Program-made: the position numbers and the translations under genes
The notes under the pieces: model-generated
The model's database searches: none
Told to the model about the DNA's origin: nothing
Seen by the model: only the letters and a program-made list of their open reading frames with translations
Assembly (NCBI GenBank): GCA_040954595.2
Contig: CM082597.2
Coordinates: 8,390,343 to 8,454,342 of the forward strand
DNA: 64,000 bases
Reading direction: 5' to 3'
DNA from: Balanoglossus misakiensis
Taxonomy: Eukaryota > Animalia > Hemichordata
Shown here: positions 4,694 to 61,213 of the stretch, piece by piece
Position numbering within the stretch: the first letter of the stretch is position 1
How the letters are laid out: the number at the start of each line of letters is the position of its first letter

Positions 4694-5266
4694 TGTTACG
4701 ACACACCCTGTTTAGTTGCTTGGTCGAGAGAGGGGTAGCTTTTCTTTGCATAACAAAGGGCCCTGCCTTTTGAAGTAGTTCATTTAAATATTGGTAATAA
4801 CCAGATGGTCACCCATATGAAAGGCCTTCTCACCAAAACCACGAGGCACACTTCTCAACACGGACTCGGAGGAGCACGTAGCTGTCGTAGCTCCAGCTCC
4901 ACATCGCCTTGGGAATTAGGAATTTACCTAGCTGGGCTGGATTCTGTGAGCAACCGACTTCATGAGCAACGGATTTTGTGTGAGCAACGGACTTTGTGTG
5001 AGCAACGGACTTTCTGTGAGCAACTGGATTCTGTGAGTAAATGGCTTCTGTGAACGACGGACTTGGTCAGCAACGGACTTCTGTGCCTTGAGTTCGGCCA
5101 GGACTTTTGTGGACTCGGTAACTCCTCGACCAAGCAGGGTAAAAACACGCAGTGAACATTTTCTTTTGTGTGACCTTTTGATTTTAGAAGGCTAGTTGTT
5201 TAATTAAATATTCTGTTGTTGAACCACATTCTCCATTGTGTGCTCCCGGTTTTTTCTACCGTAACA
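4694..5266 (+). mobile_element. 3' LTR of the Gmr1-like element (about 573 bp)
   Basis: Begins TGTTACG and ends CGTAACA (7-bp terminal inverted repeat), follows the PPT, contains ATTAAA near 5202, and abuts another Gypsy pol. Confidence 0.9.
4938..5086 (+). repeat. Degenerate ~18-bp tandem repeat inside the LTR
   Basis: About 8 units resembling TGTGAGCAACGGACTTTG. Confidence 0.85.
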
Positions 5267-7790
5267 GCGGTTTATGTGCTGTGATGATTCTGAATCTGGG
5301 TGCTCCCAACAGATATATGCGGAATCTGTTCTTCGCCCATTTCACTGCTAAAGCATCTTTCTCAGTCTGGCTGTATCTTTTCTCAGCGCTTGTCAAAGTG
5401 CGACTGATGAAGTGAACTGGTCTCAGGCCTTTCTCACTCTGCTGGAAAAGTCCTGCTGACAGTCCTTCATGGTAACTAGCTTCTACTCTTACTGTGATGG
5501 GTTTCGATGGGTTGAAGTAAGCCATAGTATCTTCATTTGTGATACTGTCTTTGAGGTTCTGGAAAGCTGCGTTTTCCTTCTGTCCCCATCTGAAATGGAC
5601 ATCTTTGTGAGTAAGCTCTCTCAGGGGTGCTGTCAGTGATGTGTACCGTGGTAAAAACTTCGAGAGATATCTGATCATTCCCAGGAAGCTTCTCACTGCC
5701 TCCTTGGATTTTGGTGCTTTGCATTCTTTCACAGCTCGGACTTTCTCTGGTGTTGGCTTGAGTCCATCTTTCGTGAATCGGTATCCGTAGAATTCAATCT
5801 CCTCAACTCCAAATTTGCATTTGTCAAGGTTGAATGTGATCCCGAAATCCTGTGCTCTCTGTAGGACTGTTTCTAGTGTTTTGTTGTGTTCTTCTACTGA
5901 ACGGCCTCCCAAGAGGATGTCATCGCGTTGGTTGAGACATCTTGGTATGTCACCAAATATTCTGTATATTGTCTCGTCAAACAAATCTTGTGATGACTTG
6001 GCTCCAAAGATCAGTCGTTTCGGCCTCATGTTGCCCCATGGTGTGCTGAAAGTTGCTACTGCTCGAGATTCTGGATCTAGCAAGAGTTGGTGATATCCCT
6101 GCCTCATATCAAGCTTGGAGAATATCACACAGTCGTTGAACTTGTGCTCAAAATCTTCCACTATTGGGCTCTGGGTGATTCTGTTTCTCTCCATGTACTG
6201 ATTTGGTACTCTCAAGTCTACACTTGCTCTGATCATGTGTGGCTCTAGGTTTTCCCTTAGTGTCTCATGGAATCTTGGTTTTGGTTGTACTACAAGGGGT
6301 GAACACCATGTCACTGGTTCTCCTTGTGGAACTTCTTCAAAGATTTCTTCTTGTATACAGTGCTCCAGCCATTTCTTTAGTGGTTTCTGCAGGTAGTATG
6401 CCACAGGTCTGGGTTTCTGGGCTACTGGTACTGCTTCTTGCTTCATGCTGAACTTGGCATAAATTTCTCTATCATTCTTCATATCTCTTATTCTTCCAAT
6501 TCCCTGGAATACATTTCCGTATTTCTCTGTTATCTCTTTCACTTGTTTGTCCAGTATTTCACTCTTCACTGTTTTGATGTCTTGATTTTCTTTTATTCGT
6601 AGATTGTTGACCTCTGTCAGCGATCCATCTGGTTTTATTTGCATCATACCCAATTCAGTTAGTGTGTTCCTGCTCAGCAGTGGTGGTGAATTTATCCTAC
6701 CTCTGACTACGATGAACTTGGCTTTCACTCCACAGGTTTTGTTTCTCACTATGGTAGAGAATTCGCCTTTCACTGGTAATCGATCTTGCAAAGTGTTTAG
6801 CTTTGTGTGACTGTCCTGTAGTTTGATCTCATCGCTGGATCTGTGTTGTAACGCTTTGAACAGATGTTCATCCATGACATTTACCTCAGCTCCGGTGTCA
6901 GGTTCCTTCTGTGCATCAACATCATTTATTCTGACTGTGACAGTTTTTCCTGTGTAAGTTTCATTTGCTCTTTTGATACCTTTGACGTGTTTAATTGCAT
7001 GCTCAAAGTAGTCGTCATCTGAACTTGTATTGCTGTCTTGCTCTTTTGTTGAAGTTTTCTTTATTCTTCTCTGCTGTTTTCTATAGTCACCTTTCTCTTG
7101 GGCACTGCTAAGTGTCTTTCTGCTTCTATACCCTGTGTCTTTACTTCCTCTGTCTGGATCTGCTCTACACACAGAAGCGAAGTGGTTTCTCTTTTGGCAT
7201 TTCCTGCATTGTTTACCAAAAGCAGGGCAGTTCTGTCCTTCTTTATGAACTCCAGTCAGTCCACAATATGTACACTGTTTACCATCATGTGCAGGTGTCT
7301 GTTTTCTTTTCTCGGGTTTTCCGTGTTTCTTGGTTTGTCTGTATTGTCTCACTTTTGCGACACTTCTCTCACCTGACTGTTTCATATCACGCATTTGTAG
7401 TGAGGTGTCCTCCATTTGCGCTGCTTCAGTCAGTAACTGAGTAAGAGACCATTTCTTGTTTATTGCTTTCTGTATCAGGGTGCAATTGTCAATTGTCTGG
7501 ATGATATGTTCCAGAATTCTCTCTTCACAACTCGTGCCGAATTCATACTCGTTGGCTTTTTCTCTCAATCTGGCTGCGTATGCGACAGTGCTTTCATTTG
7601 TTGTCGGAGTCATTTTGAGAAATAAATACCTTGCGTGGTGTTTATTCTTCTTTGGCGTGTAGTACTCATTTAGTTTCGTTTTCAACTTCTCATAGACGTT
7701 TTCTCCCTCTGTGGGGTCAGGTAAACTTTTCTCGAGTCTCGCTATCTCTTTTCCTCCATAGATTATCATGGCATCTTTCTTATCTGTACA
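5267..7790 (-). mobile_element. Second Gypsy element (gag-PR-RT-RNase H), 5'-truncated and interrupted in RNase H by the Gmr1-like LTR
   Basis: Two zinc knuckles (CTYCGLTGVHKEGQNC, CRKCQKRNHFASVC), protease PDTGAEV, RT (LDMRQGYHQ, LIFG, NQRDD), RNase H (VEASY, RYSQTEKDAL, ITAHKPL). The ORF is cut at HKPL by the LTR end. Confidence 0.93.
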
Positions 7791-7924
7791 CTGTGTTGCT
7801 GCACAAAAATGTCTTGGCATGAACACACTGCATGTGCTTATCACCCTCAAAGCCAAAAGTGCTCTGCATGTGCTTATAACAATCAAAGCCAAAAGTGCTC
7901 TAACACAAGATATATTATTCATTA

Positions 7925-8275
7925 AAGGGACAAAGTCTCTCTTCTTCCCCATTTTTAATTAATTATGTTTGATACAAGACACCGTTTATGTTATTCTACA
8001 TGTGGATTTATAGGGAATCGACGTTCAACCACACACTACTTCCATCCCACTTGTAGACGAGAGGGGAAAATCTCGCCAAAATGAATAATCAGTCTCTACC
8101 ATTTATTCATTTTGGGCGAGTTTTTATTTTCATATAATACAAGCAGGATGGAAGTTGTGTGTGGTTGAACGTTCATTCACTACATGTACATATACACATG
8201 TACATTAACATAAACAGTGTCTTATATCAGACATAATTAATTGGAATGGGGCAGCGAGAGAGAGACTTTGTCCCT
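7925..8275. mobile_element. Palindromic ~350-bp MITE with TTAA TSD and AGGGACAAAGTCTCTCT termini (Kolobok-like); other copies at ~9146-9496, 25258-25612, 27930-28279, 44179-44526, partials at 13146 and 33095
   Basis: ttaa|agggacaaagtc...gactttgtccct|ttaa, with long internal inverted symmetry, repeated at several loci in the window. Confidence 0.85.
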
Positions 8276-41022: not shown

Positions 41023-43647
41023 CACGAGCGTCGTATGTGGAAATCTAATGGTTGGATGAGAGAAATAAAAATCGCATTGTTTGTTGTTTGCACATGCGCA
41101 CAAAGTCATTAAATATGGCGTCCTTCATGTCATTTCGGGAACGATCGCGATCGTCGACGAAAAAAGTTGTTGCATCTGCCTCACGAGAGCATCATCTCGT
41201 TTTGACAACTCAAAATCGTATGCCAAACACTTAGGGGCATGTTTCGGAGCCGCGCTGAAGGTATGAGTGGCTATTTGTGCATGACATGCAAAGCAAGTAT
41301 TAGAAAGTTTTGCGAGGATCGATCATTGGACTTCAGCCACTTACTTGACAAAAAAGGCCAGAAAGGTGGAAGTAAAGGACAAAGGCAGTATGGGGGACAA
41401 AGAATAAAACTGGCAAGGTGGGAGAGTTCTTCATCCACGTCGACGAGTAGCGAGGAAATAGGCAGCGAAGGTTGCGGCTGTGACTACCGGAGTTGGTTAT
41501 CTGCGGCAGGTGCATGTGGATTGCTGCCACCCGATGTCATTGTCAGTATTCTTCATCACGTAAATGTCACTGATATTGTGAATTTCACATCAACATGTTC
41601 ATTTCTGCATACATTTCGAGCTGATGCTATAATTTGGTGTCAGAAATGTATTCATGATTTTCCAGAGAAGTATGCCACACTGATATCTCATAAGGCAGGC
41701 TTTTTTTATTACACCACATCATGGTTTGAAATTTACAAATTATCGAAATTTTCTGATCTCAACCACCAAAATGACACACAGCAATATTTAAGTCAGATCA
41801 AATCACTGTCTGTTCATATGAATAATGCTTCATGGAAATTAATGACCTGAAGGAAAAGTTGGCAGAAACATAGAACTCTCTCAGTGATATTTTGACCATG
41901 TCACCATCCAAACCACTCACAGTAACACAAGAAAAAATCTTCAAAACTATGACAGTAGTTAAAGAAATAAGGAGTTTGGATGGAACCATAAAAGCTGTTA
42001 GTTCCAGAGGAAGACCAAAAGTGTATATTGCAATACCCCAGACAGAAACATCATCGATAGAAGCTACAGAAAGATCAAAAAGAGCCAAGTGTCAGCTGAT
42101 GGAGAAGATTGAAAAAATGCAGTATGTCAATAAAAATGAGAGTGGAGAACTTAATAAAGCAATTTAGTTGCTCAACATGCGTAAAGAATAAGCCGAGACA
42201 AAGCTATCTACATCAAGGCAGCACGAGAAGCTGGTATACCAGTACAAGGAACATTTTCCAGGGAAACAAGTTCTTGCTTTTAAGAGCATAATGCCAATGA
42301 CAACCTGGCAACCTGGTGTTGATGTGCTAGGAACAGAGAGGCAGTTAAGACAGGAGCTAGAAGAGATGGAGTTTAGCTATGAATACGGAGGTTTTGAGAG
42401 TGAAGAGGAAGGTGGACCAATTACAGTCCTTTATGTGCGAGTTGCAGATGTACAAGAAGTTCTTCATAAAATGGTTGCAGAGTTCAAGGCAAATGGAAAG
42501 CTGACAAATTTTGACAATATATCAAGAGACACACTGTGGCTTTGTGTATCTGGTGACAAAGGTGGCAACTCTACAAAACTGATGTTACAAGTCATGAACA
42601 ATAAGACTCAGCATTCTATTAAGCAGTCTAAACTACTGTGTTTTATTTGAGGGTGGACATGATACCCGAAAGCATATTGAGATGGTGTTCAAAGATATCA
42701 TTGCTGACTTATGCAAGTTGCAGACAGAAATCGCAGAAATGAAGCTGGAACTGCCTGAAACATTTCAGTGTGACAAAAGAACAAGGAGCCTGGGATCACA
42801 AGGTAAATTTGTAATTTCTTCTGCTTAATGTCACTAGTCATTACTTTGAAAATTTACCCGGATTTTTATGATAACACAGCAAATGTATATTAATTTGGAA
42901 ATGTTTTCATTACTAGTGCCAACAAGTGATGGTGTACGTCCAACGAGAACTACACGGACTGGATTCAAACCACTGCGACCCTTCAATGAAGATAATCAGA
43001 CTGTCAGTGTTAATTGTGCGTACTGTAAGCTGCAACATGGTAAGCAAATTGACATCACCCAATTAACAATAAATGTACAATCATTATAATTGTGAAGCGC
43101 TTCCTTTGATTAAAATCACTGGTTTTATTATAGAGAATTTAACAGTGACACCTCTTCACCTGTGTCTTGGCATCGGGCTGATGATACTGAACCTGATTGA
43201 ATCTATGTGTCTGGAATTAGATCGGACATTTTTCAGTGAGAACGGTGTACATTCTGATGAAATGGAAACCTTGCTAGAAAGTCAGAGAAAACTGTCAGAT
43301 GACTTACTCTCTTCAGAAAAGAGCTAAATTTGCTTGAAGAACAAAGTCATGAAATTCAAAAACACATAGATGATGTCAAGGAAGAGTATGCAAACTATTA
43401 TGAAAAGTCAGGTGGGAAGTTAATTGACAGGTCAAGTGATGCTAAAGATGCCAGAAGAGAAAAAACACAGAAGGAAAATGCTTTACTCGAGAAACAAAAA
43501 CTAATCAAGCTACAACTAAAACATGTTAAAGAACAACACAAATTAACAGATAATAGTCTTCAAAATGTAATAACAAAACTGGCATGTCATGCAGGTCATG
43601 GGCGATCGATTAGATTGTCAAGGCGCTTATGGCGGCGAACGCTCGTG
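41023..43647 (+). mobile_element. Internally deleted RAG1/Transib/Chapaev-like DNA transposon with CACGAGCGT termini
   Basis: Left CACGAGCGT (41023) and right ACGCTCGTG (ends 43647), with an inner AATCTAAT box at both ends, enclosing transposase fragments. No clean TSD. Confidence 0.68.
41115..43595 (+). pseudogene. Degenerate FAM60A-like zinc domain + F-box + RAG1/Transib-like DDE transposase
   Basis: CCICLTRASSRFDNSKSYAKHLGACFG...SGYLCMTC; LLPPDVIVSILHHVNVTDIVNFTSTCSFL...IW; GRPK; WQPG; LCVSGDKGGNSTK; PLHLCLGIG. Multiple frameshifts and stops. Confidence 0.7.
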
Positions 43648-47705: not shown

Positions 47706-48625
47706 TTAAACAATATTTTGTTTGTAAACTGTCTGTGTTTGGACATTGCTGAATTCTTAGGGTCAGGATTAAATTTAACCATCAACAATAACAAGGCTGG
47801 GTATATGAAAGATAACATTTTGTTATTTTAATAGCTGAATGTAATTTTCTTTCAAATTTTACCGACCTGGAAATGGATTTAAGTATACATATCATTCCAT
47901 GGTAGCACGAGTTTCTGCTTTACTACAAATTCATTCTCCCAATCCTGACTAGATTTGAGATGCAGATCATCCTTATGTAAATGAATGCTTCATCAATAAA
48001 CTTGATGACACAACAGATCTAACTACATGTGCGGTTACCTTAACAACTATGACAACAATGTCCAGGGTTGGGCAATGGATGTGTGCATTCATGTTTACAT
48101 ATCTGTTTGACACAAGTTACAATTCCTTCACTACAGGTACAGATTTCACATTCATCAACAGGACTGGTCCGTGTAGAATTGTGGTGATATTCTATATTGT
48201 TGAATACACAACCTATAGCACAAAAAGATTCGTTTGGAATCAATTATTCTTTGGAAATAATTACCAAGAGCTTTATACTTTTGATTAAAACCTTAACACT
48301 ACTGGGCGTCATACCCGTTTAGAGTGTCAGGGGCCCTTAAAATATATATGTGCCCTTTTTCTTCTTAAAGGTATTTTGACTGTCTTGGCATGGCTCTCTA
48401 ACGTACTTAAACACACTTGGCAGTCTGAGCCCCCTGTAAAATGTACCATATCGCACTGGTTTGCACTGTATTGGTCTGAGGGTCTTGTATACACCACTTT
48501 CATAAGTAGCGCCCTGTACAGGCGATGACGTCATTCGGGGGAAAGTTTGAAGAAGCCATTTTGTCAACGGTATTTTTCTTATGTGGCGCCTGGTGTTTTT
48601 TCAACGCGGTCGCGGGAAGCTGGAA

Positions 48626-51252
48626 ATGGCTGCAAAAATGGTGAGTGCGATTTCAGTTTTCTTCTCAAAGTCCTTATTTGGTTCTGCCAAGTAATTTCAG
48701 ACTGCCGGTCACTCATAAATATTCATCGGCGGCATTAATTTTCATTACTTAAATATTTACATCCTATTACTTATTCATGTCCTCAACGTACTTGCTCTAA
48801 GCAGCTCAGTGATCGAGTTTTCATTCACAACTAATACAAAAGACCAAATAGCTACAATGACACAACATCTGAACAACTAAATACTATTTGCAACTGTTTC
48901 ACACCTCTGGTTTTTGTTTCCTTCACGATCTTTTGTTTATTTAACAGCAATGTACATGGGCCAGCCAGGGCTGCAATTTTTATCACTTTCATTCCATTGA
49001 CAGGCTATCCTTTGAGCTACCACTGAGCTGACTGAAGTGAATCATGAGTTTTCAGAACGGTAGAGTGGCAAATGCTGTGCAGCCTAGCTGTAATTGTACA
49101 AATGTGAGTGATTGTTTTTCAGATGCTTCAATAATGGTTACACATGCAAAGTGAGAATTCACATATTTTCAGTAGAAATATGCCTAATTGAAATATTCAT
49201 TTGTGTTGATAATTTTTTAATGTTTGAACTACTTTATCCAGGTGACCAGACCCCTAATTAAATGCTTTGACTTTTTTTCTATATAGCTAACTGAGGAAGA
49301 CATACCGGGTTCTGTTTTATCGAAGGATGTTGAAAAATGCAAAAAGAGTGAACTACAGTTTTGGTTAAAATGCCATGGATTAGTGCACAATTCGGCGGAT
49401 ACCAGGGCAACACTCATAACAAGGTCATTATTACTCTTGCTTTTCACTAAATAGAGTCCAATGTGTTGAATGCTGATATTGATGTAATGGTCATTAAATG
49501 CTTTGAAATATCTATCAAAACATGTTTTTCAGAGTCCGGAAGAGGTACCATGATGCCCATACTATTGTTGACCCTGATCCAGGACTGTGTTACACACGGG
49601 CGAAGAGGCTCCGTTGTCCAAGATGTAAAGATGAATACACTGTTGATAAGACTCAAACTGTGGACATTTCTAGTTGTGATGATTGGACCAGTTCTTGTGG
49701 TTCAATACCAACAGGTTTCTCATATGTTCAAATTATGAACCATGTGAAAAAGTCGGGCAAAGTTGTTGGGGATTATGTTGAAAAACCACTTGATAAAGGG
49801 TACACATTTTTTTATGAAAATTATGTACACAATGTAAAAAGCTGCAAAACAGACACACATTGTTTAATCAAAGGGAGGTGTTACAGGTCCCAAAAGAAAA
49901 ATGAACCGCCCCATTTTGTCAGCTTGTCACTATGTTTAGTAACAGCTGAGGTTTTTAATGCAAAGTGCTCATGTGTTGCAGGTACTGCAGGACATTGCAA
50001 TCATATAGTGGGACTTTTATATTTACTTGACCACTGCAAGAAATTAAAACTGAGAGAGTTTCCTTTACTGGGAACATGCACAGATAATCCACAAAAGTGG
50101 CATCGTCCCAGGACTGATGGAATTGCACCTGAACCAATAATGGGATACAATGTTTTTAGACCAAAGTATGGGACATCTTCCTCTGGGGTAGCTTGTACTT
50201 TGTATGAAGCTAGGGGGAAAGCTGTATTGCAGACATCAAATGATCAATTGAAAGAGCTCAGTAATGATATTCAGGACTTAAATTTGGGTTTTTCTCATTT
50301 GACCCCCACAACTGATGATACTGATATGGTACCAACAAAAATGGGTTTCCATGTGCCTGTGGGTAGTGTTCTCAGTTACCAGTTGTCCTTAACCGAAGGC
50401 AATTTTGATGTCCTGTGTAATATTTCCAATGATTTCATTGTAGAATTTATTGCAGAAACCTACCCTAGGCTTCCACTGTCTGCTGTCCCTATCTTCAACA
50501 TTAATGGCCCTTGTATTGAGAGTGTGTCAAAGTTCCTAGATAAACTTAAGCTGAACTCTGATGCATCAGCGCAACTAGAAGAACAGACCCGTGGCCAGTG
50601 TTGTAACCCCTTATGGTTTGAAGCCAGGAAATTCAGATTAACGAGCAGCAAATTTGGGGGGGTTGTTAAAAAAAGACCTTGGGGAAATCATAGCAAATTT
50701 GTACGCAGCTTATTAATCACAAAAGACATGTCGCATATTCCAGCAATAAAATATGGCCAGGATAACGAATCAAAAGCTTTAAAAAAATATGAAGATTTCA
50801 TGATAAGTAGTGGTAGGCAGGTTTCTGTTTTTAGGGCGGGTTTAGTTGTGAACCCATCAATGTCCTGGTGTGGCGCATCACCAGATGCCAAAGTTATTGA
50901 TGAACACAGTGGTGTTGGGATTGCTGAAATAAAATGTGCATATGCATATAGAGATGTCAGCCCCAGAGATGCATGTAGTGACACAAGATTTTATTGAGAA
51001 ATAGTGGATGGTGTGCCTCGTCTTAAAAAAAATCATAATTATTATTTTCAAGTTCAAGGCCAGATGGGCATATGTGGTGTGTCATGGTGCGACTTCGTTG
51101 TATACACAAATAAAGGTCTGTTGATAGAGAGAATAAAGTTTGACGTTTCTTTCTGGGAGTCAATGATGGAAAAACTTATTGGTTTTTACGAGACACATTT
51201 TGTTCATGTAGCATCTGAAATGATAGATTTTGTAAATATAGATGCAAATTAA
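48626..51252 (+). pseudogene. Element A SAP-SWIM-YqaJ (lambda-exonuclease-like) gene; exons 48626-48640, 49287-49423, 49533-51252
   Basis: MAAKM|LTEEDIPGS...ELQFWLKCHGL...TRATLITR (SAP-like); CSCVAGTAGHCNH (SWIM); WFEARKFRLTSS, GASPD, EIKC, YYFQVQGQM. In-frame TGA at 50995. Confidence 0.88.
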
Positions 51253-51331
51253 GCTGAAATGATAGATTTTGTATATATAGGAGCAAATTAAGCTGAAATG
51301 ATAGATTTTGTAAATATAGATGCAAATTAAA
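51215..51331 (+). repeat. 39-bp tandem triplication spanning the nuclease stop codon
   Basis: ctgaaatgatagattttgtaaatatagatgcaaattaag x3. Confidence 0.9.
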
Positions 51332-51622
51332 CTACTATTGTACTAGCAGTATGGAATTCAGTCTTGTTTTATTGTTGTTTTAACATGCACAATACAATTC
51401 AACAAAAACAATTACCATTAGATATCTCATACATGACCCTGTTATTTATTATATTAAAATCTCAGTATTGTCCCGTTATAGCCCCAGTAACACTAATTTT
51501 GAGACACTGTGTCAGTATTTTTTGTTGTTACTCCATATTTCCAAAACATGATGAAAAAAACAACAGAAATGTTATTTAATAACATTTCTGTTTTTTTTTT
51601 CATCATGTTATACCACCGGGCT

Positions 51623-53811
51623 TTAATCTGGCACAGAAATGATTGGGTTCTGGAAGAGAGTCAAAAGTGCACAGACTGTCCATATCTGATTGATTGACCC
51701 TGTTAATGACATAGGGGTTCACAGAATCAAAAATATGGAAATTTTTCACTTTATTTATTGCTCTTTCTACATGGATTCTTTCTGATGCAATCTGCTGAGT
51801 TTCAATAACATCACAATCTGGCATTTGTCCCCTTTGCCCCAGAAATGGTGGGATATTTAGCTTTACATTGATTGGATCAAGTAGATCCTGAATATCAAAG
51901 CCTTTGTCAGCTAGTATGCCATCTCCTGGCTCAAATTAATTTTGCAATAGGCCACTTCTGATGGTCAAATCACGATCTGAAATACTACCAGTGTACAGCT
52001 GTGAGACAAAGCTGATGTTACCAGCAGGACTGATTCCAATCAGACCTTTCAGTGTGTTTGTTGATTTATAATTTGAATATGATTGAGATTTCAACATTAA
52101 TGATGATGGCATTTCAATCTTTATTTCTGTTGCATCAATGATTATACGTGTATCAGCATATTTCTCTTTGAATGAATCTGGCATTGTGTTCACAACAACC
52201 TGCTTAGATGGCCATATATTTATGGTACCAAGTCGGAGATACAGAAAATTTGACCAGGACAGAACAATATTACTGACAGTGGTGACAGAAACTGAAAATC
52301 GATATGACAAATCACGCTCAAAAAGACCCAACCGTACCCTGCACAAAAAAAGAAATAACTGATTTTGCACAGACAATTTCCGCGGTCTTCTAACCTTTGT
52401 TCCAGTCTGCTGGTGGGAACTTGCTGTCTGGCGAACATTTACGAGATTTTCACCATTTGGCCCAGGGTTTACATATTTTAGAAGGGAATTAAAAACATGA
52501 ATATTAGGAAAACCTGTGTAAAAAGAAATATCACACTCTTTGATGTTCTGTATCAAAAATTCGGAGTTGCGAAGAGCAATCTCCAGACGATGGTTCTCTA
52601 CAGTTAATTGTTGGATTTTGTTTTTAAGTTCCTCCATTTCTTTGGCCATGATTTCAAAACGTGAGGAAGTTTCTTCATCAGCCCTTGCAACCTTGGTCGA
52701 TGCATCCCCAGATTCCAACTGCATCATGGTTGTCTGGTTCTCATCCGTTTTGCATAACCGCGACAGTTGCAGAGCATTAAATGGCCGACTTGGCTTAGGC
52801 TGAGCTGTTATATGAGGAATATCTTCCCAACACTTAAAAACACACGGGACAGCCCCTGAATGAATCGTCCTCCTGCCACTGAATTGGTGAAACTCAATAT
52901 CATCTTCTCTGAAACGGAGGGAGCAAACAACTGTATGATTTCCAACCTGAAAAATAAAAAACAAATATAAGCAATAGTAGAGGGATTATATTTTAGATTC
53001 AGCATGTTTCCAAAGACTTGATTTGTGTTGGAAAGCTACACAGTGGCTGTGACCTATATTTATATATGTACAACATTTACATTAATGAAATTTTCATCTA
53101 ATTCTTTAGACAGGAATATTTGATTTTTCATTTTTCATAACAGCAAGATGGTGTTTAGGGCTTTAAACAAATCGCTCCAAAATGTTCATTTTAAGAAATT
53201 TAAATACCTTAAAGGACTTGTCTTCATCACGTCTTATTTTTGTCAGCCATATCTTTTTCATTTCTTCATTTTGTGGAAATTTATGATACGTAACAGTACC
53301 ATGCCCAGGAACAGAAAACTTCCCATAGCTGGTACAGCGTGGCACAGCACAGTTTTTTTTTTTGTAGCATTCCTGGAGCTCACCTTAGAAAAAAGCTGAA
53401 TAAAAAAATAATATGTGATGTAAAAATAAATGAAAAAAACATCATGGTGGTATCTACAAGTTATGCTGATCACAGCCCTGGCTGGCCCATGTATATTGCG
53501 GTTAAATGAACAAAAGATCGTGAAGGACACAAAAACCAGAGGTGTGAAACAGTTGCTAATAGTATTTAGTTGTTCAGATGTTGTGTCATTGTAGCTATTG
53601 GGTCTTTTGTATTAGTTGTGAATGAAAACTGGATCACTGAGCTGCTTAGAGCAAGTACGTTGAGGACATGAATAAGTAATAGGATGTAAATATTTAAGTA
53701 ATGAATATTAATGCCGCCGATGAATATTTATGAGTGACCAAATTACTTGGCAGAACCAAATAAGGACTTTGAGAAGAAAACTGAAATCGCACTCACCATT
53801 TTTGCAGCCAT
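51623..53811 (-). pseudogene. Element A THAP + HTH + DDE_Tnp_4 transposase; exons 53797-53811, 53208-53395, 51623-52946
   Basis: THAP CAVPRC..HKFP..W...IRR|VCSLRF..AVP; IIDATE, SISD, ILADKGF, RIHVERAI. Lesions: poly-A frameshift near 53355, TAA at 51936, frameshift near 51715. Confidence 0.9.
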
Positions 53812-54328
53812 TTCCAGCTTCCCGCGACCGCGTTGAAAAAACACCAGGCGCCACATAAGAAAAAAACCGTTGACAAAATGGCTTCTTCAAACTTTCCCCC
53901 GAATGACGTCATCGCCTGTAGAGGGCGCTAGTTATGAAAGTGGTGTATAGGCCCTACTGAGTAACACACACTTGGCAGTCTAACAGGTCTGGGTGCCAGG
54001 ATTCTAGGAACCCTGGTAATCAAACCAGATTTAACCGACATGCCAGTGTTAGTGTTAGTGTTAGAGTGGAAAGTTGCCCAAAATTGCAACCATCATTATC
54101 TTCATACGACCAATCCTCTGAAATCAATAGGGCTGTATATCATGGAGAAGTATCTGATGGCTTCAATGCCTCTTTACGGAAAGGTACCCGGATGTAAATC
54201 AAAACGAGGCTCTAGGGGGCACTGCAGGTCAGGGACACTGCGCCATTGTTTGAACAAAGTTTGTTTACATAACATGACCTTTAGTGACACTAATATTTTG
54301 CGTACGTAAGACGTACTACGTTTAAATA

Positions 54329-55754
54329 ATGGGAAAGTGGTATTGTGCTGCAGCCCTGTGTAATAACCAAGCCAATAAGTGTCCAGAACTGTCGTGGCAT
54401 ACATTTCCCACTGACGAAAAGCGTCGGAAAGTGTGGATCGCGCTGATGCGGCGAGCAGACGATTTCTGCACATTTCAAGACATCAGACTTTAAGATCGGA
54501 TTGGCGGGTAAGCGATATCTAAAGCCAGGAATTTTACCGTCCATCTTTCCCTGGACAAAATCCACAGCTACCCGTCCTTCGCCGAGTCGAAGCCGTCTCT
54601 GTCTCGTTGATGATAGCGTACGTCTGCCCGTAACAACGACGTCAGGTAACATTTCGCCCCAGTCCAGTTCAGCGGTTTTAGGACCCCTTACTCCGGAGGA
54701 ATGTCTTACTCTTGCCGACAAAGTTCAACGACTCGAGAAAGAAAATCAACAGTTGAAGAAAGAAAATCTACAACGTCAACAGCAACTAGACATTTATAAG
54801 TTTGGACTGGACCGTTTTTCGTGTAGTGACGATGACATTTATTTTTATACCGGCTTTCCGGATTACAGAACTTTAGTCGGGTGCTACGAATATTTAAAAC
54901 CGTGCGCCGAACATTTGCATTACTGGCAGTATGCACAGAGAAGGGCGAGAGAAAGTTCGTACACTCCGAGTCCGGACAGCGATGCCAGAAAAACTGGAAG
55001 ACCACGATCGATGCAGCCTATCGATGAATTTTTTTTAGTACTTTGTCGGTTGAGGTTGGGCTTATTTGAGCGAGATTTAGCCCATCGCTTTTCTGTTTCA
55101 ATTTCCGTTGTATCTGATATTTGTATTACTTGGATTAATTTTATATATTTACAATTTGGAAGTTTGCCCATTTGGCCATCGAGACAAAAAGTCAATGAGC
55201 ATATGCCTGAGATTTTCAAATCCAGTTATCCTGATACCAGGTGCATCATCGACTGTACAGAAATTAAATGTGAAACACCCAGTGACTATGGGAGACAGTC
55301 GGAACTGTGGTCTGAGTACAAAACCCATGATACTTTGAAAGGCCTTGTTGCAATAGATCCTGCTGTTGCCGTGACTTTTATCAGTCCGTTATTTGGGGGC
55401 TCAGCATCAGATAGAGTCATCACTGAGCAATGTGGTCTTCTCGACTTGCTGGAGCCAAACGATAGTTTAATGGCAGACAAAGGGTTTGATTTGGGTGATC
55501 TACTTATCAAACGAAGGGTGACACTAAATATTCCTCCAAAGCGTCGACCTGGTCAAAAGCAAATGAGCTGTAATGATGTTTTTGAAACTCAGAGAATTGC
55601 AAGTGTTCGCTTACACGTTGAACGAGCTATAGGCAGGGTGAAGGCGTGGCACATATTTGATCTTGTTCCACTAACTTTGTACGGATCTATAAATCAGATG
55701 TGGGTTGTCTGTTGCTCTATTGTGAATTTTCAGAGGCCAGTGCTGTCATGCTAA
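54329..55754 (+). pseudogene. Element B THAP + DDE_Tnp_4 transposase (intronless; frameshifting deletion in THAP near 54464)
   Basis: MGKWYCAAALC..HTFP..W..LMRR / SAHF..LKPGILPSIF; IIDCTE, ASD, MADKGF, RLHVERAIG. Confidence 0.9.
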
Positions 55755-55896
55755 TTGTAATTAATTATGATTATGTTAAACAATGATTAAGAAGATCCAC
55801 TTTGTAGTGCTCAATATATGCTTGGTATCGTCATCTGTGGGGACTATGAGTTCTGGATACATGGCTGTGTGAGGGTGTGTCTATTGTGGTGTCTGC

Positions 55897-56172
55897 AAGG
55901 TCATTGAACTTCTGGTCATCACTCAGTGACCTTGTTGACCCCACAATAGGCAATACCCCCCAGGTTTCCAAGGGATGAATATATGGAAAAGTCGCTCATT
56001 TTTACATTATTTATTACATTATTTATTTTCTTTTGAAATATTTTTTGTATGTTTTAATTCTATATATGAGCTACTTTTCCATATATGATTTCATCCCTTA
56101 GAAACATGGGGGGTATTGCCTATTGTGGGGTCAACAAGGTCACTGAGTGATGACCAGAAGTTCAATGACCTT
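55897..56172. repeat. Fold-back inverted repeat (~100-bp arms) between element B's convergent genes
   Basis: aaggtcattgaacttctggtcatcactcagtgaccttgttgaccccacaatagg... with its reverse complement ending gttcaatgacctt. Confidence 0.85.
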
Positions 56173-57164
56173 TATTTTATGTTCTTCTCCTCACTGAAGT
56201 ATACTTGATTGCCGGTTGTTACAGTTCAACTCTCACCCTATGGGTGGTTATAATGCATGACTTCTTCCATAAAACAATTTTTGGTACATACCAAAAATTA
56301 AATTGTTGGAGTAGTCATGCATTATGTCCATGTGAAGGGAGTGAGTCAAGCTGTGACAACCAGTGATTGAATCAATTTCAATAAGAAGAATACAAAAAAT
56401 ATTTGACAAGAAACTTAAATAACCAAACATGAGCTGCAACAATGAATTTTGGTTTCCACCTCATAAGGACATGACCTTGTTCTGTTGACTGAAGCTTGTA
56501 GAGGGATGTCATAGCTCCTGAAATGTTAAAGACCTGGTGTTTAGAATGTTGACCAAAATGGTTAAATTTGATAACTAAATTCAAGCTTGTAAATCAATTC
56601 ATATATCAAACAATCACTACATCATTACTTGCTAATTTGACAGGGAAATTAGTATGTCTTCTTGATTAATTCCTGAAATTTATGTAACTATGTAATAAAC
56701 TTGAGCGTAGACAATGAATAATCATTAATTTATTTTATTGCAGTACCTTGTAATAAATAAATATTTTGTAAATTAATAAAATAATTCAAACCATATATCA
56801 TTATGGTTAAAAAATACTTTAAATAGTATGTGTATACATATCCTTAAAAGTCGCTGATGGAAAATTTCTATCAATATTTACAGAGAATGTATTTACAAAT
56901 TACATATATTTACAGATTTGAATTAAAAGTTTGATATTTATTTGGACAGCAATGCCACATGGTCTCTTGGTAATATTTTTCACCAAGTTTTAGAAAGTCA
57001 AGCAAGCATTTGTGACTGACAGAAAATACACCATGTTTCCAGATATAAAATGAATAAAATGTATGTACTTCATTTTTCTCACAAGTTTTTCTCACAATGT
57101 TTTCTGACTTAACCATGAAAACAATCACATATTTTTCAGTCTTTTCAGGTTTAACAGTATTGAA

Positions 57165-60051
57165 TTACATTTCATTTTCACAATGTGCAAATTTAATGTA
57201 TGTTGAGGTGAGGACTGGCAACATGACTTTAATCCAAACTTCATGACTGAATCTCACTCTTTCAACATAAATTTCACCATGTCCTGTGTAGACAATAATG
57301 TCACACCATTTCAGGCCACTGAGGGCCATCTGTCCCTGAATTTGATAAAAATAATCATGCTCTTTATTTAATCTCATACAGTCAGTATTTTTCAAACAAA
57401 AAATTACCATATCAGGATGAGAACCTGCCTGTAGAGGTGACAGACCTAACTGATTTGCTTTGTACGATGTTTTGATCTCTGCAAGGCCAAATGAATCTTC
57501 CTCTGTACAGTCATACACAACAAGGTCAGGGGTAGCACCAAGATATGGAATAGCTGGATTTATTATCAAGCCAACACTAGAAGTTTGAACAGGTGAACAA
57601 TTCCTGTCTTTAAATTCTCTGTACAATTTAGCTACAGTAGCTTCATTTTCCTTTCCAAACTGGATTGCTTTTATGTGTGACAAATTTCTGGGGAATTTAA
57701 GATTTTGAATAAATTTTTCAGAGATTACTTTCCTTTTGATAATTTGACCAAAGTTGGATGCAGTAATTCTGTTTGCTCTTAAAACATGCCACTGTGAATT
57801 ACTACTCTGTGTACGAGTTTGTTTTTTCAATATTTTGTGATTTAGCTAAAGATACTGCCAGAGACTTTAAGACATCAGTTGGAAATAAAGTGAAATCTAT
57901 AGAGTGATTAAGTACATTTACAGGTAATGGAGGAAAAGATATTGATAGACTGGCACTGTCACTGACAGGCATATGATAGCTTACAGGAGACCCATATGGC
58001 ACCATACCAAATTGACTTTGGACCATATCACATTCATCAGGTATATTTCTTACAAGAGCATTAACAATATTGTTCTGTTTGAAATATTCCTTTAACTTTT
58101 GAACTTTTCTCATTTCAAAGTTAGCATACTGTGCGGGTCGTGGATCATACAATGTTTGATGAATGCCTTGTTTTCTTTTAGTGCTTGTAGAACTTGTGGA
58201 AGGTTTTGGTCTCTGTATTGTAGAATGGATGATTGGTGTATGTGCTACCTGTCTTTTAGTTTTACTTGCCCCATTGTTGTTTTTCTTCAGTTTTACTTTT
58301 CAAAGAGGGTGCTTCTTTGATATCACGAAGACAGAAGTCATCAAGCTGCCAAAGGAGTGCAACCACATGACAACATGTACCACTCAATCTGATAAAATAG
58401 AATAATGATAAAACATACAGTGTAGTTTAGTACGATAATATAAGTGTAGAATATGTTATAACATATACAGTGTAGTACAATACAGTATAATACATTACAG
58501 AACAGTACAGTACAGTGAATTACAGAAAGAGAGTACATGACATGAGAGTGCTATACAATAACTTACAGCTGTTCTGGACAGTTACAGTATTTTAGAATCC
58601 ATACTTTATAATACAATACAGTACAACACAAAAGGACTACACTACAGTATGTACATGTATCACTGTAAAGGATAGTACATGCTGTACTGTTAAAACGTGT
58701 GCAGTATAATAACGTGCACCAAGATTTAATGATTCATTTGATAACAGACTTGGGAAAAATGATACTGAATGATATAGACATACCCTGCAACACATTCTGG
58801 TCTGCATATAGCAGCTGCAACACGATTAGTACCAACTTTGTCCAGAACAACCAGTATACTGTGTTTAGTTCCCTTAGCCATTGATGCCCAACAGAATGCC
58901 TTAACATACACCATTCTTTCAGTTGCAGCCATCTTAACACCATGGACAAATCCAGACTGAAACAGGGCGAAACCTTTACTAAAATTATTGCCAGTCATTA
59001 TGCATCCAGTGCTCTCCTGAAAGAAAAAAAAACAGACATTTGAAGTTTTGATTAAGTTTCATTCCACCATGTTACATTATTCTTAAAACTTGCTAGTTGT
59101 AATTTCTGACTTTTTTACAGCATTTTTTCAACAACAGTTTCTTGGTCTACTCTCAACAGAAGTCAGAACTTTTCACTACTCAAATGATCAAAATACCTGT
59201 ACAGTAAAACCCCCTAAATTGAAATGATTATTGCCATTTGAAAATGAATGCGGGAATGCACAAATCAAGTGTCACTTACCTTAGACTTATATGTCATTTT
59301 GCCCGACAATTCCAATGCAGAGTCTATATCAGCAGGTGTGAAAACAGGTATCTGTGTCACATCTGTCGTGAACTTCTCATCTCATAGTGACCCGGGTGTT
59401 TACGTGTATTCAGACCAGCGGAATTTTAGACAGCAAGAGACTGTGGTCAAACCATAGACATCTGACACTGACGTGAAACGTACCATCATGGAGGTATAAC
59501 GCTTATACCTCCGTACCAAACAAGCAAACCTATAAACTTTGTCAAAGTTGATTAAACTTTGATGCGATGGGATAAACATTTGTGTGACTAAACAACAACT
59601 TACACAACGGTGCCAATCTCGTCGGCCGTCTGCTCTGTGGAACAAAGTCATAGTACCGTTCGGCTTCAAGTTGAATATCACGATCACAATGTCAATACAT
59701 AGTTAACAACATGCACACGATATAAAACCCAGAAAAAATGCGCGACGAGACGAGAACATTGCCACCGAGTGGGATATTTCAAGAATTGGCGTTTTTTCCA
59801 CAAAAATATCACGATATCGATAAAATGTACATTGAAGTTTGAACGACGACGACAAGCAATAATAAGTGTACTCACCGTTCGACCAAAGTCTTCTTATTGC
59901 CAGTCACACCGAGTCTTCGAACACGAAGCCAGAACACTTATTCACTGACCCTAAGCGTTGTAGGATCACGACCGTTCAGATCTGACCCAGGTATGTCCGC
60001 TGGAACCAGCTGAACATCACCAAGTTCGACGACTGATGCCTGATCATTCAT
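57165..60051 (-). pseudogene. Element B SAP-SWIM-YqaJ nuclease gene (exons ~59876-60051, 59280-59529, 58783-59016, 57165-58388)
   Basis: MNDQ...LVPADIPGS...LRVSE*VFWLRVRRLGVTGNKKTLVER (SAP-like); ICRPECVAG|LSGTCCHV (SWIM); WHVLRANRITAS, LGATPD, EIKT, YFYQIQGQM. Several frameshifts. Confidence 0.87.
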
Positions 60052-60157
60052 GTTATGTAAACAAACTTTGTTCAAACAATGGCGCCGTGTCCCTGACCTG
60101 CAGTGCCCCCTAGAGCCTCGTTTTGATTTACATCCAGGTACCTTTTCGTAAAGAGGT

Positions 60158-61213
60158 ATTTCTCCTAAACTTTTGACTCAGATCCAAAGACAATGAAGAA
60201 TTCAGTCTTCAAGATGTAAAATTCGCAGAAACATAAATAAATCAGTTAGATTGTTTTACCACATTTTGCAGAGAAAGGTTTTTGTTCAACAGTAAAATGG
60301 ACATATCTCACAGTTTCCGAATTGAATTTTTCCACAAAAGGAGACATGTGTACGCAATTATAAAAGAGATAAAATTGTGAAGATATTGTCAATTGTAACA
60401 ACTGCATGTCTTTAAATTGTCAATCAACTCTGTCCCTACTGATTTTCCATTCTGAGCTTCTGCGCATGACACAGAATGATTGCTTCAAGTTGAGCTGTAT
60501 TATTATGAGCACAAAAAACACACAGTTTTGCATATTATAATATAGTTTCAAAACGCTCAACTCACGCCATTGCGAGACACTCTCCATTTTTCTCAGAAAA
60601 ATCTGTCCTCCTGGGCCTGTGAGTCAAAATTTCCCCGTCTCTTGTGATTACGCGTCCGTTGTCAATCAGTCGAGCATCTATCCAGAATATTTCTCCTCGT
60701 CTAAGAATGTCTAGTTCTTTTAAACTGTTTACTATAGCTGGGTGTTTTTCTTCGCTGTCATCTTTAACAAGGCGAAGACCTAATCGCTCACAAAAATTGT
60801 AGGCAGAAAGATGATCCCTCTGCTTGAAAATCTGTAGGGTGACGCAACCTGGTAATCAAATAATAATTTTAAACAATCACAAAATATAAGATATGTGATG
60901 AGCTCCTGTTTTGAGGAACTTCAAACATTCTGAAGATGCAAAACCCAAAATTAGTGTCTTACCTGCTTGCTGCAGTAATGTCATCGACAACATCACGAAT
61001 GTAGCGACGAGCGTTAACTTCAAAGGTATTTCACGACATTCTTGTAACATCTTACAGCTTCTCCGGCAAGCCATGGTTGCGAGTTTGCGGCTAATCTGCG
61101 AGCATTTTATACATGTATATTTTGACAAATTATGTGTGTTTTGCAAAGAATTGTAACCACTGCAGAGAGAGAGATCGGGTCCTAAATGGTGACACTGTGT
61201 CGTGCTCGTTCAT
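60158..61213 (-). pseudogene. Degraded coding-like sequence of unknown identity, apparently split by element B
   Basis: ATG at 61213, donor near 60962, acceptor near 60850. Protein-like stretch RLGLRLVKDDSEEKHPAIVNSLKELDILRRGEIFWIDARL; many stops. Confidence 0.3.

Follow-up and report, generated by a model that had tools for sequence, protein, structure and literature searches.

A decayed ISL2EU-type transposon of Balanoglossus misakiensis with long terminal inverted repeats that likely hold the first coding exon of its transposase

We identified a 5.46-kb DNA transposon within a 64,000-nt stretch of the genome of the hemichordate Balanoglossus misakiensis (the window, to which all coordinates refer). 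It encodes two convergent genes, for a YqaJ nuclease on the forward strand and a THAP-HTH-DDE transposase on the reverse strand, which converge on a 370-bp gap, and it ends in terminal inverted repeats (TIRs) of ~483 bp. Both TIRs contain the same promoter-like motifs and the same five-codon micro-exon. With moderate confidence, we favour a reading in which the two matching ends drive transcription of both genes, the micro-exon peptide begins the transposase only, and the TIR grew inward.

Identity of the element and its terminal repeats

The ISL2EU (IS4EU) elements are a group of the PHIS superfamily (Han et al., 2014, PMC4122938; Han et al., 2015, PMC4482050; also PMC9179366). They have two open reading frames (ORFs), the second encoding YqaJ, and duplicate AT at the target; in 25 catalogued families the TIRs are 6-259 bp long, usually with GG ends (Han et al., 2015). 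We identified a YqaJ exonuclease in the second ORF of the window element (PF09588, E 9e-10) and a three-domain transposase (THAP, E 3e-7; HTH_Tnp_4, E 2e-16; DDE_Tnp_4, E 5e-18), with all three domains above Pfam cut-offs. The catalytic spacing D(19-29)K(29)D(18-40)D(11-19)P(18-28)R(3)E of the PHIS superfamily (pattern from PMC4122938) is present in the window element, in the related transposases P0058 and P0231, and in a neighbouring element. The host is an animal, as seen from the spliceosomal introns and from the nearest named proteins, which are those of the acorn worm Ptychodera flava (nuclease 75%, transposase 74-76%). The element pairs with P0058 in a tree of DDE domains (support 100/99), where the other members are unnamed relatives. 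P0231 equals the ISL2EU-4_CGig transposase in length (537 aa), which is only a hint toward that named family. Membership in MuDR/Mutator was rejected, as Pfam gives DDE_Tnp_4 and no MULE match, and so were PIF/Harbinger and NuwaI/II, for which a Myb/SANT second ORF and a 3-bp duplication would be expected (PMC4482050). Domains, second ORF, AT duplication and PHIS spacing thus support the identification, already made in the original prediction, of an ISL2EU-type cut-and-paste transposon, here a decayed copy.

Two features depart from the catalogued group. The target is T|AT|A, not A|AT|T, which is a preference rather than a diagnostic trait; T precedes AT in 7 of 8 ends of the sub-clade of the element, and the neighbouring element does fit A|AT|T. 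The TIRs start with AC and, at ~483 bp, are about twice as long as the longest catalogued (259 bp), although the published range is descriptive. The nuclease had been labelled SAP-SWIM-YqaJ. YqaJ is confirmed by Pfam, but the Pfam scan of the nuclease gave no match for SAP or SWIM, labels that rest on the names of relatives and on an invariant C..CxH motif.

The insertion site could be read from contigs of runs X1 and X2: within a very abundant repeat, TATA occurs once where the element is absent and twice where it is present. Relative L026, whose ends carry the motif of the window element, keeps its symmetry no further out than the AT, and we therefore set the element at 48491-53946, with AT duplicated at 48489..48490 and 53947..53948. 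The repeat described in the original prediction is real, but its bounds of 48488 and 53949 are better replaced by these. The AT reading is preferred, although 0-, 2- or 4-bp (TATA) duplications are possible readings of one copy. The target repeat, recognized by contig depth, occupies 48355..48488 and continues at 53949-54050. Its summed depth in X1 and X2 is 27,000-150,000, as against ~240 inside the element, and the two flanks have a 16-nt stretch in common, which suggests a satellite or an array of miniature inverted-repeat transposable elements (MITEs).

Local alignment of the inverted repeat (48488-48973 with 53949-53473) gave 466 identical columns among 477, plus one 9-nt gap; a repeat finder splits it into arms of 210 and 282 nt. 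Both the left TIR (48491..48973, + strand) and the right TIR (53473..53946, - strand) match one 505-nt majority contig, and a 9-nt deletion at 53739 in the right TIR is private to the window copy. The promoter-like motifs (48526..48562, mirrored at 53911-53875) are TGACGTCA, found at 48526 and 53904 and 4 times across the 64-kb window, and GCCATTTT, at 48555 with a mirror copy at 53875. We take the former to be CRE-like and the latter YY1-like. The micro-exon followed by GTGAGT lies at 48626-48646 and 53811-53791. Alignment and a check of motif positions thus bear out the TIRs of ~485 bp, the named motifs and the two micro-exon copies that had been proposed. A CpG-rich stretch (observed/expected 1.06 vs 0.36 inside) and the conserved promoter-like motifs are confined to the outer 200 bp, and TGACGTCA and GCCAT(T/C)TT were found again in the ends of relatives L001, L002 and L007. 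The presence of TIR-borne promoter-like motifs at both ends is thus supported, with their promoter role predicted. An ATG..GTRAGT phase-0 micro-exon arose in 3.5% of 5000 shuffled TIRs, so the pattern alone is modest evidence; it is homology that makes the evidence strong.

The 505-nt contig has a depth of 448, compared with 229-262 for interior contigs; depth is not copy number, but the raised value is as expected if most copies have identical TIRs. The two TIRs of the window element depart from this contig at the same pair of sites (48595/53842 and 48800/53646), besides 11 one-sided differences. Thus, the two ends appear to evolve together. Selection for TIR identity had been proposed; the identity could be explained by gene conversion without selection, as proposed for Mu (PMC10401008), and related elements have TIRs of only 15-121 nt.

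First exons of the transposase and the nuclease

The right micro-exon (53797..53811, - strand, donor 53796) is likely the first coding exon of the transposase. It precedes exon 2, with the start of THAP (53208..53395, -), and exon 3, with the end of THAP, a coiled coil, HTH and DDE (51623..52946, -). In the window copy, the junction 53797->53395 is out of frame. A T11 run in exon 2 (53353-53363) has two T fewer in the X1 and X2 majority contigs, and acceptor 53395 is in frame with this shorter run. The P. flava RefSeq model P0059 begins with a five-residue peptide that differs from that of the micro-exon at one position. It stays in register through THAP, with the same peptide boundary and few gaps (shuffle p 0.0004, for an alignment of the micro-exon plus the 14 residues that precede the first Cys motif of THAP). 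No ATG is in frame within the 72 codons ahead of acceptor 53395, the acceptor is only 77 nt from the TIR, and the TIR has just 2 donor-like sites; the start codon is thus almost certainly within the TIR. On these grounds the right splice and the homopolymer frameshift ahead of THAP, both proposed originally, hold, and the majority contigs of the family are frame-compatible with the junction. Acceptors 53378 and 53372, which give an in-frame THAP in the window copy, were rejected because they are out of frame in the majority and disagree with P0059. Also rejected, by hand reading, was an ATG in a Kozak-like context immediately inside the edge of the right TIR, which runs into stops both in the window frame and in the observed length variants.

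The majority contigs of the family keep open frames for both genes. The lesions of the window copy are a nuclease stop at 50995-50997 (absent from the majority contigs of X1, X2 and X3), a transposase stop at 51938-51936 (absent from those of X1 and X2) and a one-base shift near 51713 in exon 3 (absent from the majority contig, X1 only), all three overlooked in the original prediction, together with the T11 run. Other indels listed within the element lie in predicted introns or between the genes (49136, 49449, 49486, 49526, 51591, 52960, 53082, 53432-3); the exceptions are the 9-nt gap in the TIR and a minor indel at 48733. X3 covers neither the TIRs nor the transposase, and the small X4/X5 shares (a 483-nt TIR-only contig, depth 2) were not used. 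Some X1 and X2 contigs switch strand at 50721-50811, and divergent contigs occur over 50810-51017; these are likely rearranged or internally inverted family derivatives.

At the left end, we identified a nuclease exon that had been missed. It spans 49004..49103 (+), with a predicted acceptor at 49004, an ATG at 49044 and a donor at 49104; 49044-49103 is an open frame of 20 codons from ATG to donor, with a Cys motif at its end. The next exon (49287..49423, +) is SAP-like by the names of relatives, without a Pfam match, and is followed by the main exon (49533..51252, +), which has the SWIM-like motif and YqaJ and carries the premature stop in the window copy only. A 39-bp unit repeated three times (51215..51330) spans the nuclease stop codon. 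Both P. flava nuclease models (P0001 and P0178) begin in an exon of the 49044-49103 type, with Met at the corresponding place, and not with the micro-exon peptide. Junction-anchored alignment of the exon to these models gave p 0.0002 (p 0.005 with only the 13 codons ahead of the Cys block); only this anchored test was significant, and unanchored BLASTP of the 20 codons against P0178 returned nothing significant (E 5). In P0178, one Glu is the sole residue before the intron with a codon that can end in AG. Among the close loci that cover the nuclease start (L001, L004, L007 and L008, of which L004 and L008 are one family; L002 is cut there), all have an ATG-bearing exon of 13-21 codons with the Cys motif at its end and the same intron. 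That of L001 has 20 codons, equal to that of the window, and L004 and L008 have an acceptor-like site about 40 nt ahead of the nuclease ATG. Thus, we infer that a separate start for the nuclease is ancestral and has been retained. Of the 19 differences of X1 over 48981-50504, only that at 49064 falls within 48981-49103. A hint of the join 49103->49287 comes from X3 contig 21, which lies on 49287-49388 and has, directly before 49287, 15 letters equal to 49089-49103; this word is unique in the window, and GTGAGT comes next in genomic order.

The original prediction had the left micro-exon splice from 48640 directly to 49287, giving the nuclease the five-residue start of the transposase. Acceptor 49287 is real, but by homology and the X3 contig its partner is the exon ending at 49103, and the nuclease has its own ATG. 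The claim of one promoter and one start for both genes therefore stands for the transposase start and for promoter-like motifs at both ends, and fails for the nuclease start. A junction from 48640 straight to 49287, skipping 49004-49103, would be phase 0 and in frame, and very short N-termini occur in some distant nucleases (P0047, P0408). Nevertheless, the skipped exon with its Cys motif is conserved in four loci as well as in P. flava and oyster, the sole join observed at 49287 comes from 49103, and alignment of the direct junction to P0178 gave p 0.70. We regard this junction as very improbable for the main transcript; it could occur as a minor isoform.

Use of the left micro-exon and growth of the repeats

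The two micro-exons would be used differently under the reading that we favour. At the right end, splicing to 53395 would give the THAP domain its sole upstream ATG. At the left end (48626..48640, +, donor GTGAGT at 48641), the same micro-exon would be a 5'-UTR exon of the nuclease mRNA, spliced to 49004, the first acceptor of good quality past the inner edge of the TIR. Three codons on, this frame meets a stop (49013-49015), making an upstream ORF (uORF) of 8 codons, and the nuclease would be made from ATG 49044, 28 nt past the uORF stop, by re-initiation or leaky scanning. By scanning rules, an upstream ATG in a strong context makes a downstream start depend on re-initiation. The context of both micro-exon ATGs is strong, so the nuclease would depend on re-initiation, and its output would probably be lower than that of the transposase. 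Conversion from end to end would keep the TIRs identical with or without selection.

Acceptor 49004 has a pyrimidine fraction of 0.70 and an AG-free zone of 33 nt, compared with 0.75-0.80 and 35-68 nt for reference acceptors 49287, 53395 and 52946. Outside the TIR, it alone resembles these three. We counted 15 AG sites between the donor and 49103 (those with a pyrimidine fraction of at least 0.6, plus every one past 48990), of which 13 give a short uORF and 2 (49056 and 49083) an in-frame fusion. A strong-looking acceptor at 48948 in the left TIR was set aside, because its base is absent from the right TIR, with no majority difference at the mirror position, and is likely private. Asymmetric use of the symmetric exon is plausible. 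More tentatively, the choice of acceptor alone may decide that the shared exon encodes the start of the transposase on the right and acts as a repressive uORF on the left, setting the ratio of the two proteins post-transcriptionally.

In a corrected form of the original prediction, the left micro-exon would instead be joined in phase 0 to acceptor 49056 or 49083, within the extra exon, and both proteins would start with the five residues that it encodes. Both acceptors are CAG and in frame, the donor and the strong ATG context are identical at both ends, and the 49056 fusion scores 36 against P0178. The two acceptors have weak tracts with short AG-free zones (0.45 and 5 nt for 49056; 0.35 and 15 nt for 49083), the micro-exon peptide is absent from both P. 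flava nuclease models and present in the transposase model, it begins only one of 549 proteins compared, and the ATG at the position of 49044 is ancestral. In the oyster Magallana gigas, nuclease (P0010, P0179) and transposase (P0066, P0231) begin with four identical residues; no other match of this kind occurs in a set of 490 pairs of distinct N-termini (chance ~3e-4 to 6e-4 per pair). This match is possibly not TIR-borne, as a catalogued oyster family with a 537-aa transposase, the length of P0231, has a TIR of 48 bp, and the transposase of L002 likewise begins MSE; it may thus reflect chance or sub-terminal similarity. We consider splicing to either fusion acceptor unlikely, and a single N-terminus for both proteins, even with exon skipping included, is probably wrong here. 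Less probable again is that the left micro-exon is unused, nuclease mRNA starting from an internal site close to the inner limit of the TIR; end-to-end conversion would then have produced the long TIR as a by-product. Relatives function with short TIRs, Mu elements acquire TIRs of more than 1,100 bp by proposed conversion (PMC10401008), and in L001 and L007 coding begins in the counterpart of exon 49044-49103. Against this, the promoter-like motifs and CpG-rich stretch are only in the outer 200 bp, their left copy does not differ from the right copy, on which transposase expression must rely, and a good acceptor lies 40 nt upstream of ATG 49044.

Several points weigh against asymmetric use of the micro-exon as set out above, of which the oyster match is one. 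Against P0178, the 49056 fusion does no worse than the model with the nuclease's own ATG (36 vs 33). Promoter activity, the transcription start, the uORF and acceptor 49004 are all predicted from sequence, and another in-frame ATG, in a weak context, is present in the TIR at 48581. The RefSeq models used are themselves predictions. X1, X2 and X3 are runs of one sample, possibly the source of the window itself. X3 contig 21 is a single contig of depth 2.1 from a run labelled 'DNA?', with 15 letters against a bar of 31 and a fold-back-like loose end at the opposite side. That the TIR grew in the direction considered next is a matter of parsimony only, in an unrooted tree where the clade (support 94/92) is not starred.

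Both ends were readable in five of 37 relative loci, with TIRs of about 15, 21, 25, 59 and 121 nt; those of the neighbouring element in the window are 113 nt long. The nuclease end of L001 and the transposase end of L002 match over 86 nt only (91%), a stretch that includes the terminal motif of the window element, GCCATTTT and TGACGTCA. Beyond it, each carries its own first exon, which in the L002 transposase is a micro-exon of 8 codons ahead of THAP; P0354 starts at that acceptor. Thus, the promoter-like words in short TIRs and the transposase micro-exon appear to be ancestral. Most simply, the TIR likely grew inward from the transposase end in the window lineage, and would have expanded past the predicted promoter and the five-codon first exon to reach ~330 bp into intron 1. 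No readable ends were found at L010, L005 or L006. A HMMER search of representatives (best 150 of 22,286) gave one more SAP-bearing N-terminus and no new shared start, a viral contig scan gave one weak locus among 35 candidates and nothing useful, and a prokaryote genome scan gave none in 27.

Some relatives have features of their own. Short-TIR loci L026 (81-139/3493-3551), L017, L012 and L034 have start codons just inside the TIR, in an AA(A/G)ATGGC context, at one or both ends. A large internal deletion in the L002 transposase (2419-2657) fuses THAP to the end of DDE, and L024 (9672-10582) has an inverted internal segment and has lost the 5' part of the transposase.

Neighbouring sequences and known systems

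A second ISL2EU-type element (~54167-60158) lies 220 bp away, with 113-nt TIRs in an A|AT..AT|T setting and genes for THAP-DDE on the forward strand and a broken YqaJ on the reverse strand. The last four bases of its TIR contain an ATG that starts the nuclease frame (60051, -) and, at the other end, opens an 11-codon uORF (54274-54309) ahead of the transposase ATG at 54329. It is thus a mirror of the main element, with a TIR ATG that begins the nuclease and a uORF before the transposase. An 83-nt inverted pair with 110 nt between its arms (55868-56172) lies past its transposase stop. A 13-nt word common to its TIR (54199-54211) and both L026 TIRs (117-129, 3515-3503) is a candidate transposase-binding or promoter site. 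Words in the TIRs of the main (48509-48523) and neighbouring (54210-54225) elements presumably resemble the CTCF core motif.

Elsewhere in the window, features were read by eye. A 900-codon frame at 5256-7958 (-) resembles gag-protease-RT-RNase H of a long terminal repeat (LTR) retrotransposon. Exons of a host gene at ~16000-47400 (-) have stretches that are sushi-like, EGF-like, VWC-like or Thr-rich and mucin-like, and are interspersed with many MITE-like repeats. Two frames at 41206-42650 (+), one F-box-like and one with a stretch ending GDKGG, may be another decayed element.

If the transposase does start in a TIR exon, the inner part of the repeat cannot be dispensed with. Repeated TIR expansion and contraction is unexplained for Spy, the sister group in PHIS (PMC4122938), and the family studied here, with intact majority frames and short-TIR relatives, offers a direct comparison for change in TIR length. 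For annotation, a five-codon exon escapes ORF finders, and the THAP domain is then called truncated. The ISL2EU and PHIS literature examined, in part, establishes no role for the ISL2EU nuclease. The uORF model, if true, would be a simple route to unequal protein amounts from a symmetric element; together with the mirror arrangement of the neighbour and possible sharing in oyster, it would make TIR length an adjustable means, used repeatedly, of setting the protein ratio in transposons with two genes.

Compared with the ISL2EU group, the window element is alike in its THAP+HTH+DDE transposase, YqaJ ORF, AT duplication, length of ~5 kb, animal host and PHIS DDE spacing. It is unlike the group in its TIRs of ~483 bp, in ends that are AC..GT and not GG, in its T|AT|A target, and in a TIR that contains a coding exon, its donor and part of an intron. 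The P. flava, M. gigas and coral-type relatives P0059, P0058, P0001, P0178, P0231, P0179, L001, L002 and L007 belong to the same transposase clade and have the same intron positions; L001, L002 and L007 have the end motif and promoter-like words of the window element. ORFs that start in the TIRs of linear plasmids are a parallel, one that the part of PMC9925561 consulted does not confirm. The context of the micro-exon ATG, with G at -3 and +4, resembles but does not exactly match the TISU/YY1 start element SAASATGGCGGC described in mammals (PMC3177215). In the literature that we searched, Repbase Reports, most subscription journals and supplement 3 of PMC4482050 aside, no ISL2EU TIR is described as containing a coding exon or a uORF.

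A similar layout is known from maize MuDR, whose convergent gene pair is served by promoters and start sites within TIRs of ~215 bp (PMC3440606). The two systems share the convergent gene pair, near-identical TIRs, regenerated left/right symmetry and TIRs that sometimes extend far inward; for Mu, symmetry and extension are ascribed to conversion rather than selection (PMC10401008). They belong to different superfamilies, the MuDR TIRs are described with promoters and starts and with no mention of a coding exon in the part of the literature consulted, and promoter activity is experimental for MuDR, whereas for the window element it is predicted from motif conservation. TIR promoters that drive convergent genes are thus already known from MuDR.

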